DNA from: Candidatus Gastranaerophilales bacterium
GTDB lineage: Bacteria; Cyanobacteriota; Vampirovibrionia; Gastranaerophilales; Gastranaerophilaceae
DNA: 64,000 nucleotides
Reading direction: 5' to 3'
NCBI GenBank assembly: GCA_947624975.1
Contig: CANQMP010000002.1
Location: forward strand, 22,878 to 86,877
This document shows positions 1 to 2,707 of the stretch, piece by piece (the stretch's first letter is position 1; each line of letters opens with the position of its first letter). Position numbers and translations under genes: made by a program. Under the pieces are notes generated by a model. It did not search any database, had not been told where the DNA came from, and saw only the letters and a list, made by a program, of their open reading frames with translations.

Positions 1-498
1 TTCCTCCAAATCCTTAGGCAGCCCCAAAAAATACTGCCTCATTAAAAATATCCCGAAACCGCCAAATAATGCAGGTAAAATTAATGCCTGATAAGTGTCT
101 GTAAAATGCAGTTCCCGCATCATAAAAAACAAAGGTATGATATTAACCTGCGGCGGCACAAGCATCGTTATCAAAATAATTAAAAACAGTGCGTCCCTGT
201 ATTTGAAATTCATTCTCGCAAAAGCATAACCAGCCATTGACGCAAAAATTACCTGCCCGAAAGTCGCAATTACCGCTACAACAAGACTGTTGAAAAAATA
301 TAAACTCAAAGGAATTTCCGAAAAAACATTCCCGTAATTTTCAACGGTTAATCCTGAATGGAAAATTTTCCCCGCATTAAGAAAAATTTCGTTATTCGGC
401 GTAAAAGAAAGGTTTACCATGGCAATGAACGGATAAAGCATACTTATCGCAATTAATACCAACGTTAAATACCCGAGAAAAATTCTAAACCTTTTCAT
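1..498 (-). CDS. Carbohydrate ABC transporter permease (runs off window start)
   Basis: Manual translation from ATG at 498: MKRFRIFLGYLTLVLIAISMLYPF...YFFNSLVVA...GYAFARMNF...GFGIFLMRQYFLGLPKDLEE, typical MalG-type permease leading into the EAA loop. Confidence 0.9.
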   Translation of the reverse strand, partial: MKRFRIFLGYLTLVLIAISMLYPFIAMVNLSFTPNNEIFLNAGKIFHSGLTVENYGNVFSEIPLSLYFFNSLVVAVIATFGQVIFASMAGYAFARMNFKYRDALFLIILITMLVPPQVNIIPLFFMMRELHFTDTYQALILPALFGGFGIFLMRQYFLGLPKDLEE

Positions 499-566
499 AA
501 TCCGATTATACCACGTGAAAACTCACAAATCACTAAATCACTTTGTAAAGGATGGGGATGGGGTCA

Positions 567-942
567 GTCATTGCAAGCGTATGCGAAGCAATCCAGCCTA
601 TAATTTTGCACGCAGTGCCGTAATTATTCACCCTCCCCTAACGGGGAGGGCAGGGGTGGGGTACAGTTTTTTCCCCTCCCTTTGTAAGGGAGGGGGAACA
701 GGGGGTGGGTTAATCCCCTCTCCCCCTGCGGGAGAGGGCTAGAGTGAAGGGTAAACCGTCATTGCGAGCGAATGCGAAGCAATCCAGCCTATAATTTCGC
801 ACGCAGTGCCGTAATTATTCACCCTCCCCTAACGGGGAGGGCAGGGGTGGGGTACAGTTTTTTCCCCTCCCTTTTCAAGGGAGGGGGCAAGGGGTGGGTT
901 AATCCCCTCTCCCCTTGCGGGAGAGGGTTAGGGTGAGGGGTC
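567..942. repeat. Tandem duplication of a ~190-bp palindromic REP-like mosaic (units 567-757 and 758-942)
   Basis: Two near-identical units starting gtcattgc-agcg-atgcgaagcaatccagc, each with three GC-rich hairpins (ccctcccc..ggggaggg, cccctccct..agggagggg, ccctctccc..gggagaggg). Confidence 0.9.
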
Positions 943-993
943 AGATTTTATTAAGAATTTTTAAAATTTTTTAAAAATTTTCCATTTCCCCCC

Positions 994-1021
994 TTGCATT
1001 TTTTGAAAAATCGGTTATAAT
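994..1021 (+). promoter_or_regulatory. Putative sigma70 promoter of pilin-like gene 1
   Basis: TTGCAT-16 nt-TATAAT, followed by SD AAAGGA (1041-1046) and ATG at 1055. Confidence 0.6.
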
Positions 1022-1054
1022 GAGAATGTGTAAAGAATAGAAAGGACAAATGAC

Positions 1055-1847
1055 ATGAAGAAGATTACTATTAGCGCACTTAACCCATCGGGGGGGGGGG
1101 GGATTTCCTCATAGCATAGGTTTTAAGAGTATTCTAGCCTCAAAAACCAAGAATTACGCGTTTACCCTTGCCGAAGTGTTGATAACTTTAGCCATAATCG
1201 GTGTTGTTGCAGCGTTGACCATGCCTGTGCTTATAAATAAATATCAGGAAAGAGTCACGATAACTAAAGTTAAAAAGATGTATTCAGTGCTAAATCAAGC
1301 GGTGAAACTGGCAGAAGTAGATAACGGGCCGGTAAATACGTGGAATTTGCCCAAATACTTCAGTGGCGGGAGTCAAGAGCTGTACAGTTATTTAAAACCG
1401 TATTTAAGAGTTGCAAAAGAATGTGTTGAAGATAACTCGGGTAATTGTCTTGATACAAATACAGATTATTACTATTTAAACGGCATGGAATGGGGTAGCC
1501 CAAATTCCGAGTCTGGTTATGGTAATAAATATTATGTAAGACTTATTCTTTCTGATGGAAGTTTAATTTGGTTTAGATCTGCCGGCACAGAAGGTTGTAC
1601 AGATACAGATAGCGGTTATACTGATGTGTGCGGACTGCTCTGGTATGATGTAAACGGTAGTGCAAAACCAAACACGATGGCAAAAGATATTTTTGCTTAT
1701 TTCCTTCGTCCGTCGGGAGTTTATCCATACGCTGCTCAAAACTGTTATTTGAACAGAAGAGGTTGGGGATGTTCAAAATGGATACTTGAGCATGATAACA
1801 TGAATTATCCCGAAACTGCGCCGTCAGAGTCGAGCGAAAATCAGTAA
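1055..1847 (+). CDS. Type IV prepilin-like / type II secretion protein, leader frameshifted at a G13 tract (ORF track starts at 1176)
   Basis: AFTLAEVLITLAIIGVVAALTMP N-methylation motif and DVNG..PN..KDIF motif. No in-frame start between the in-frame TGA at 1056-1058 and the cleavage site; SD-preceded ATG 1055 joins the frame only with G12 or G15. Confidence 0.8.
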
Positions 1848-1857
1848 AATAAATTAT

Positions 1858-2047
1858 TGATGGGTGGAATGACAATTGTTCCACCCATCCTACTTTCTTA
1901 AATATTCCGTACAGGCTCAGCCTGCCACTTTTTAAAAATTCGTTGGGGTAAAACCCCAACTTACATTTTAACCCCTCACCCTAGCCCTCTCCCGCACGAA
2001 GGTCAATTCGATGGGGAGAGGGAACTAGCCCACCCCAGCCATCTCTT
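1858..2047. repeat. REP-like palindrome mosaic downstream of pilin 1
   Basis: gatgggtggaa..ttccacccatcctac (1859-1893), gttggggtaaaaccccaacttac (1942-1964), cccctcaccctagccctctccc..ggggagaggg (1972-2022). Confidence 0.85.
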
Positions 2048-2122
2048 TTAAATTTAGGAAAAGCAGAAAACAAGCTTTTCAAAACTCGTGTATTCCAAGA
2101 TTAATTATGATATAATCTTTTT

Positions 2123-2707
2123 ATGAAACTTTGTATTTTTTCAGGAACTTTTAACCCTATTCATAAAGCTCATTTGCAGGCGGGGCAGTATGTAATTGAT
2201 AATTTCGGGTTTGATAAAATTCTTTTTATTCCCGCTTACAAGCCGCCGCACAAGGATTATGATTTATCAATGTGTAATCATAGGCTTAGGATGGTTGAAC
2301 TTGCTCTGAAAGGTAATAAAAATTTTGCCGTTTCCGATATAGAATACCAAAATGAGGGAAAGTCGTATTCTTATCTTACGGTGCTTGAACTTTACAAAAA
2401 ATATTCACCTGAAGGAAAAATCAGTTTCATCATCGGCACGGATGCTTTTGAAAAAATTGAAAGCTGGTATGAAGCCGAGGAATTAAAAAAAATGGTCGAT
2501 TTTATCGTTTTTGTCAGGAGCGATAAACCCGTAAATCTTGACCGCTTAAAACAAAGGGGATACAATTTTTGTGTGGCGGAAATGAAATTTAATGACATTT
2601 CATCAACAAATCTCAGAAAACTCGTCGCAAACGGCGAAAACATAAGTAAATACGTTACAAAAGAAGTAGAGGAATATATTTTAGAAAATGGATTATACAA
2701 AAATTAA
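2123..2707 (+). CDS. nadD: Nicotinate-nucleotide adenylyltransferase
   Basis: GTFNPIHKAH (HxGH-like), PPHK, SYSYLTV, IIGTD, ISST motifs. Confidence 0.92.
   Translation: MKLCIFSGTFNPIHKAHLQAGQYVIDNFGFDKILFIPAYKPPHKDYDLSMCNHRLRMVELALKGNKNFAVSDIEYQNEGKSYSYLTVLELYKKYSPEGKISFIIGTDAFEKIESWYEAEELKKMVDFIVFVRSDKPVNLDRLKQRGYNFCVAEMKFNDISSTNLRKLVANGENISKYVTKEVEEYILENGLYKN

Follow-up and report, generated by a model that had tools for sequence, protein, structure and literature searches.

Organization of the pilin-like locus

Near the start of the window, as we call the whole 64,000-nt stretch of DNA that was analysed, a solitary pilin-like gene is flanked by an ABC permease gene on the opposite strand and by nadD. 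All of its features lie on the forward strand. A promoter-like element (994–1021) is formed by TTGCAT (994–999) and TATAAT (1016–1021), separated by a spacer of 16 nt. Its conservation suggests that it functions as a promoter; a simple sigma-70 scan made no call at 994–1021 because the −35 hexamer matches at just 3 of 6 positions. Downstream of it lies a Shine-Dalgarno-like AAAGGA (1041–1046), located 8 nt 5′ of the ATG at 1055–1057 and kept as gAAAGGA in the paralogous cassettes. This ATG is the sole usable start, and 12 codons past it the sequence runs into a homopolymer of 13 G residues (G13, 1090–1102), the candidate switch. At this tract length, the leader ORF (1055–1114) reads MKKITISALNPSGGGGISS and is closed by a TAG at 1112–1114. 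The pilin frame, which is open from 1059 to 1847, continues past the tract as the post-tract leader FPHSIGFKSILASKTKNYA (1103–1160), whose 3′ end is the predicted cleavage site between Ala(−1) and Phe(+1). The mature pilin-like protein (1161–1847) comprises 228 aa followed by a TAA at 1845–1847; its N-terminal helix is FTLAEVLITLAIIGVVAAL, and its globular domain is DUF6613. A terminator-like hairpin of 14 pairs followed by a T-rich tail (1859–1889) is shared, in its hairpin, with a paralogue on contig C10. With its own promoter-like block and terminator hairpin, the pilin-like gene is a monocistronic unit.

The preliminary description of this DNA had placed the Shine-Dalgarno-like motif, the start codon and the G13 tract at these positions, and direct reading of the sequence bears this out, together with the premature TAG. 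It had also considered the only upstream in-frame ATG a dead end, and the ATG at 1050–1052 indeed runs through a single ACA into a TGA at 1056–1058. In the pilin frame from 1059 onward, the first ATG, GTG or TTG is GTG 1176, which encodes Val6 of the mature FTLAEV sequence (ORF list 1176–1847) and, as had been claimed, lies downstream of the cleavage site. Removing one G in silico joins ATG 1055 to the pilin frame as MKKITISALNPSGGGGFPHSIGFKSILASKTKNYA/FTLAEVLITL..., confirming the proposed 35-aa leader before FTLAEV at G12 or G15, with ...KNYA/FTLAEV at its end. The predicted product is 19 aa at G13 versus 263 aa, leader included, at G12. The pilin frame offers no other canonical start, and the ORF is otherwise intact. 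The gene is OFF in the present assembly, in agreement with the earlier claim.

Several other elements accompany the unit. A run of six C residues (988–993) adjoins the −35-like TTGCAT, and in paralogues it is interrupted or extends up to C9; this second homopolymer at the cassette promoter might modulate transcription. The pilin unit is bordered on either side (567–942 and 1858–2047) by GC-rich palindromic REP-like modules, which also lie 5′ of many further cassettes. Gene callers turn these modules, in some homologues, into false N-terminal extensions such as ...PSPQPSPARGEG.... No known RNA element scored near its gathering threshold in an Rfam search of window positions 400–2200.

Features of the predicted protein

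The in-frame product carries the Pfam N_methyl domain at residues 32–54 (25.6 bits, cut-off 21.2), and it is also matched by TIGR02532 (23.8 bits, cut-off 16.3) and DUF6613 (29.5 bits, cut-off 24.3). The class III motif, (Gly or Ala)/F-x-x-x-E, is present as FTLAE with Glu at +5 and a hydrophobic helix after it. The residue at −1 is Ala and not the canonical Gly; across the 103 prepilin-type genes of the genome and their homologues this position is occupied by Ala or Gly, so Ala is normal for the family. Cleavage would probably take place after Ala(−1), and the processed product may be assembled into a pilus. The AlphaFold2 model (pLDDT 81, pTM 0.79) shows a helix from residue 2 to 50, followed by a beta-rich domain. 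When the head domain was compared with the PDB by Foldseek, no match reached E < 0.5, and gonococcal pilin (1ay2) ranked sixth with a TM-score of 0.31. The assignment as a pilin is therefore founded on the motif at the N-terminus and on the general layout. A homologue with 45% identity was found in a record named 'Brachyspira sp. CAG:484'.

Components expected of a pilus or pseudopilus system are encoded in the same genome. These include a prepilin peptidase (Peptidase_A24, 30.5 bits, cut-off 26.5; C12:14738–15124), four T2SSE ATPases, namely a PilB-like one and three more (best score 427 bits), and a secretin (136.8 bits).

Constraint on the leader downstream of the tract

We compared the 23 cassette copies of the window's type, defined as those with 55–60 nt between the tract and Phe+1. 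In all 23, the pilin frame downstream of the tract contains neither a stop codon nor an ATG, GTG or TTG. Each of the remaining two frames is closed by a conserved stop, one after 19 codons and the other after about 27. The first of these is the TAG, kept in the paralogues within CCTAGC or CATAGC, which closes the one-G-too-long frame at codon 19–20. Homologues that have no tract possess short leaders with their own ATG (MKNSA/FTLAEV and MKDRA/FTLAEV). The window's counterpart of these codons reads ...T-K-N-Y-A, with ACC at the position of the ATG.

Among the paralogues, substitution entropy at the three codon positions of the post-tract leader is 0.60, 0.56 and 0.62, with no periodicity, while in the mature region it is 0.65, 0.31 and 1.40, with a clear codon periodicity. 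Taken from these alignments, the leader downstream of the tract appears to be required to stay open, and its amino-acid sequence seems to matter little. Unconstrained residues are as expected of a leader that would be cut off.

A subfamily of cassettes has a much longer leader of about 80 aa (C37:65, C9:917, C11:55915, C38:9489 and others). These copies insert about 45–65 extra stop-free codons (KFSKIFRVEGN..NKYIPFLKKGIF..KKAA) between the tract and FTLAEV, and some of them contain an incomplete second copy of the cleavage motif (FTLAEGATHVA..RKIA) ahead of the real one.

A shared poly-G cassette in one genome

The genome (1.909 Mb in 59 contigs) has a GC content of 36.6%, and the window one of 37%. 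Overlapping G9 matches occur five times in the window against a shuffle mean of 0.13, and none of 100 shuffles reached five. Genome-wide, the lengths of G/C homopolymers follow a bimodal distribution (length 7, 8 runs; length 8 or more, 87 runs; peak at 11–13), while A/T homopolymer lengths fall off smoothly.

Prepilin-type genes with the FTLAEVLITL... motif number 103, about 5% of all genes, and most of them have the DUF6613 head. Poly-G leaders are found in 36 of these genes, ordinary short leaders with their own ATG in 54 and other kinds in 13; the count of 36 is a lower bound, as several further cassettes are cut at contig ends. All 36 tracts begin exactly 35 nt past a conserved MKK start (ATGAAGAAGATTACTATTAGYGC..AACCCATC) and range in length from 8 to 19. 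Nearly all of these copies share one cassette, consisting of the promoter, the Shine-Dalgarno sequence, MKKITISALNPS, G(n) and about 19 codons. The upstream block, ...CCCCCC-TTGCAT-16 nt-TATAAT...gAAAGGA...ATG, is nearly invariant in 14 of 15 full paralogous cassettes.

By frame, 8 of the 36 cassettes are ON and 28 are OFF, 21 of the latter being one G too long and 7 one G too short. Every full-length OFF copy gives an ORF of 240–543 aa after a one-base change of the tract. The G13 of the window is thus in the state of most cassettes of the genome, one G longer than ON. This skew counts against pure neutral switching, which does not predict it, and our simplest guess is a mutational bias combined with selection for the OFF state.

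Coding constraint and recombination were both evident in the window's gene. Its dN/dS values against the three closest paralogues are 0.11, 0.26 and 0.11, so the gene is under purifying selection and is not decaying. Window positions 1401–1870 (470 bp, hairpin included) are 100% identical to the paralogue on the minus strand at the end of C10, near 60.9–61.3 kb. The 5′ third is a mosaic relative to this paralogue (70–85% identity), and the downstream flanks differ, which together point to recent gene conversion between pilin copies. A search within the genome for near-identical locus pairs whose tract lengths could be compared found none.

Tracts also lie in non-pilin genes, which encode GT8, GT2, GT-D, polysialyltransferase-like and CgtA-like proteins, polysaccharide deacetylase and NAD epimerase. 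Phasomes usually comprise genes of these kinds. Of the 27 non-pilin tracts located within genes, 9 leave the gene in frame, 7 have one G too many and 11 one too few. Such tracts cluster in surface-polysaccharide loci (C4:51891–79943, C29:10485–13729 and C13:39493–42470). The C4 locus has, besides a pilin cassette, 10 tracts in 28 kb, in GT2, polysialyltransferase-like, CgtA-like and deacetylase genes. Each of three tandem paralogues at C13 carries its tract at codon 9; C13:41450, the one tested, combines GT8 and FkbM methyltransferase domains. The longest tract of the genome, G26 (C18:27403–27428), is in frame in a GT-D glycosyltransferase gene, where it encodes eight glycines.

At two loci, C2:92826–92960 and C5:1–100, the same leader–poly-G cassette is found 5′ of GT2 genes as an upstream ORF and not as a fusion. 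These transferase genes have their own Shine-Dalgarno sequence and GTG. In one phase, a TAA located two bases past the transferase GTG start closes the upstream ORF (GTGACTAA), and in the remaining two phases this ORF stops 36–50 nt earlier. This arrangement suggests that the GT2-linked cassettes switch by translational coupling.

Tract-length polymorphism in related species

An exact-protein look-up with the 223-aa ORF returned nothing, the nearest protein outside the genome being 67% identical. In a metagenome scan, the pre-tract leader ATGAAGAAGATKAYTATTAG matched at 34 loci, each of them a chance match lacking the cassette. Tract lengths were compared at two loci of related species, chosen from pilin clusters of at least 90% identity whose members differ solely at the N-terminus.

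The first locus lies between a CbiA-like gene and pyrG, and the 110 nt 5′ of Phe+1 are identical across assemblies. Here, the tract is G12 in L127 and L128 (ON, MKHLKNKWGGGAARLKLKA/FTLAEV), G13 in L126 (OFF, with the corresponding 214-aa gene call in about 51 contigs), G14 in L130–L133 and G15 in L129 (ON, with one extra Gly). At the second locus, between dtd and rlmN, the flanks are likewise identical among independent assemblies. The tract is G11 in L137–L140 (ON), G12, the commonest length, in L134–L136 and L143, and G13 in L141, L142 and L145. The length found most often is one G above ON at each of the two loci. Length differences at these two loci of the same design are the signature of slipped-strand phase variation, observed in the relatives only.

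In the G14 copies of the first locus (L130–L133), AAATG formed with the first G of the tract supplies an ATG in frame with the pilin (MGGGGAARLKLKA/FTLAEV), so that two of the three phases could yield a product there. The cassette of the window (CATC-G13) forms no such ATG at the edge of its tract.

Distribution in the lineage and mismatch repair

Of 60 genomes sampled from the genus, 58 have tracts of at least 10 G residues, in numbers that range from a few to 176. Across the order, such tracts were present in 57 of the 61 sampled genomes belonging to family f1, two genera of which have almost none; sampled members of sister families have 0–6 per genome. Poly-G richness is thus a family trait, with tens to 176 tracts per genome. 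The linked pattern G9-N{46,76}-TTYACNYTNGCNGARGT, in which the last element encodes FTLAE, was found in 35 of the 61 family genomes; all 20 genomes from outside the family lacked it, and so did the backwards controls.

Each species has its own consensus for the post-tract leader, repeated at many loci. Such a consensus, with tracts of G9 to G13, is present at no fewer than 14 loci of the single-contig genome G034 and at no fewer than 12 of G086. When the leader DNA of the window's cassette was searched against 18 other species of the genus, it had no match, and the FTLAEV-coding part alone was matched. The species-own consensus, together with this lack of a leader match among congeners, points to concerted evolution of species-specific cassettes. 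The poly-G switch is part of a genome-wide and family-wide system on a shared leader cassette, reaching beyond the one gene.

Loss of mismatch repair as a cause of the poly-G richness is ruled out: MutL was found in all 81 sampled genomes of the order, and MutS1 is encoded in the window's genome. Both proteins being present, the genome lacks the low-repair background usual in Campylobacter and Helicobacter, which counts against the switch.

Discussion

Most likely, G13 is a reversible, slipped-strand translational on/off switch within a removable class III leader, caught in its OFF state in this assembly. Initiation would be possible at ATG 1055 alone, and the ribosome would meet the G run twelve codons on. 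The length of the tract modulo 3 would then set the outcome. G12 or G15 would let the ribosome read 19 further leader codons into A/FTLAEV and complete the prepilin; G13 would lead it to the stop at TAG 1112, and G14 to a stop a few codons later. In the ON state, the leader with its run of Gly would remain cytoplasmic and be removed by the prepilin peptidase, and the mature protein would therefore never be altered by the tract. Gain or loss of a single G through replication slippage would flip the state reversibly, and the window's own copy probably switches in this way. With the cassette of promoter, Shine-Dalgarno sequence, leader and tract common to at least 36 of the 103 prepilin-type genes, the copies would switch independently and thereby produce changing combinations of pilus or pseudopilus subunits in the population. 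The benefit is likely to be an escape from host immunity or from phages, or varied adhesion, in the gut.

Some features count against a switch. The post-tract leader shows no constraint at the amino-acid level, 35 aa is long for a prepilin leader and the −1 residue is Ala rather than the canonical Gly. In addition, Foldseek gave no solved pilin resembling the head domain.

One alternative is that sequencing or assembly miscounted the homopolymer, whose true length would be G12 or G15, and that the gene is simply ON and does not switch. We consider this improbable. Long G runs are hard to sequence, contigs of this assembly break exactly at tracts (C5:1, C8:1, C39:1 and the end of C10), and a systematic +1 error could produce 21 of 36 cassettes that are exactly one G too long. 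Against this, the 27 non-pilin intragenic tracts are spread over the frames without bias, which speaks against a general +1 error. The lengths of A/T homopolymers fall off smoothly and ordinary genes are intact. Moreover, the relatives show all three frame states in many independent assemblies from different studies, and there, too, the +1 state is the commonest.

Frame restoration at the RNA level is comparably improbable. Here, RNA polymerase slippage or ribosomal frameshifting would restore the frame in some molecules, making every copy leaky with constitutively low expression. Transcriptional slippage is possible on long homopolymers, and a predominant out-of-frame state would be tolerable if it still gave some product. 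However, slippage is best documented for A/T runs. Because the cassette copies are distributed over the three frames, a shift in one direction could not restore all of them, and length differences between the assemblies of relatives are seen directly in the DNA. RNA-level slippage could add leakiness to the proposed switch, but it does not replace switching of the DNA.

A dead or silent copy, whether a decaying pseudogene or a promoter-less recombination donor like Neisseria pilS, is very improbable. The gene is out of frame, and both its complete identity with the C10 paralogue over 1401–1870 and its mosaic 5′ part attest to recombination between copies. Nevertheless, it has its own conserved promoter-like element, Shine-Dalgarno sequence, start codon and terminator. 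The tract is its sole lesion, its dN/dS values are those of a gene under selection, and all 28 OFF copies of the genome have the same single lesion in the same place.

Least credible of all is a non-canonical start 3′ of the tract (e.g. ATT 1131 or ATA 1116), with the tract then belonging to a 5′ UTR or an upstream ORF. A leader beginning at ATT 1131 would have a normal length (10 aa), and the cassette does act as an upstream ORF before the GT2 genes at two loci outside the window, but there is no Shine-Dalgarno sequence at a usable distance, and the frame from tract to FTLAEV is open in 23 of 23 copies as well as through the extra codons of the long-leader subfamily. ATT 1131 was rejected as a start since its position is unconserved in the paralogues, which have ATC, AAT, AGC or GTT.

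Phase variation through poly-G tracts is a classic mechanism, and nearly all work on it concerns a handful of pathogens with small genomes (Neisseria, Haemophilus, Campylobacter and Helicobacter). In Neisseria gonorrhoeae and N. meningitidis, pilC1 and pilC2 reportedly vary in phase through a G tract in the region coding for the signal peptide. As in pilC, the G run of the window's gene falls in the stretch that codes for the cleaved leader of a pilus-associated protein, where tract length modulo 3 would set on or off and leave the mature protein unaffected. Unlike pilC, which has two copies and encodes a Sec-exported tip or assembly protein, this gene belongs to a set of 36 copies in which a class III prepilin leader is extended by a shared cassette. 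The opa family of Neisseria comprises about 11 copies with CTCTT repeats in the region coding for the leader peptide. It resembles the present system as a dispersed multigene family with a leader repeat in each copy, independent switching, combinatorial surface variation and recombination between copies. It differs in that the opa repeat is a pentamer and the Opa proteins are outer-membrane proteins with Sec signals. Type IVb pilins such as TcpA, BfpA and CofA have leaders much longer than the 5–10 aa of type IVa pilins. They share with the window's gene a long leader before the hydrophobic helix and its removal by prepilin peptidase, which is predicted here. Unlike in the window's gene, their leaders contain no repeat and are not switches; moreover, the DUF6613 head matched no solved pilin and is preceded by a leader with Ala at −1.

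For Campylobacter jejuni NCTC11168, 29 polyG/polyC tracts of at least 7 are reported (PMC4965091). The two phasomes are alike in low GC content and in an excess of long G/C runs, concentrated in genes for glycosyltransferases and other surface structures and in paralogous families. The genome studied here has about three times as many tracts (87 of at least 8 in 1.9 Mb), and congeners have up to 176 of at least 10. In addition, the main target here is the pilin-like genes, and MutS1 and MutL are both present. To our knowledge, C. jejuni has neither MutS1 nor MutL.

Our literature search found no paper tying Gastranaerophilales or Melainabacteria to phase variation, homopolymers or poly-G. The principle is already known; what differs here is the carrier, a prepilin leader on a portable cassette, together with the larger scale, the presence of MutS1 and MutL and a lineage for which no report was found. 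We also favour, with less confidence than the switch itself, a broader reading for the family. According to this reading, the gut Gastranaerophilaceae would have among the densest homopolymer phasomes yet seen despite MutS and MutL, with tens to 176 G/C tracts of at least 10 in genomes of about 2 Mb and with about 100 pilin-like genes per genome as the main target. A species-specific promoter–leader–poly-G cassette would have spread over many pilin and some glycosyltransferase genes and been kept uniform by gene conversion. Removal by the prepilin peptidase would make the class III leader a portable switch module. Switching and recombination together would then give these never-cultured commensals combinatorial pili.

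The mechanism appears here as a lineage-wide trait of uncultured gut Melainabacteria. In the genome of the window, a third of the pilin-like genes carry the switch. If confirmed, it would explain why gene callers mis-annotate many such genes, with truncated proteins and false starts, and it would represent a natural case of contingency loci alongside MutS and MutL. It would also provide a concrete picture of surface variation in common, unstudied commensals.
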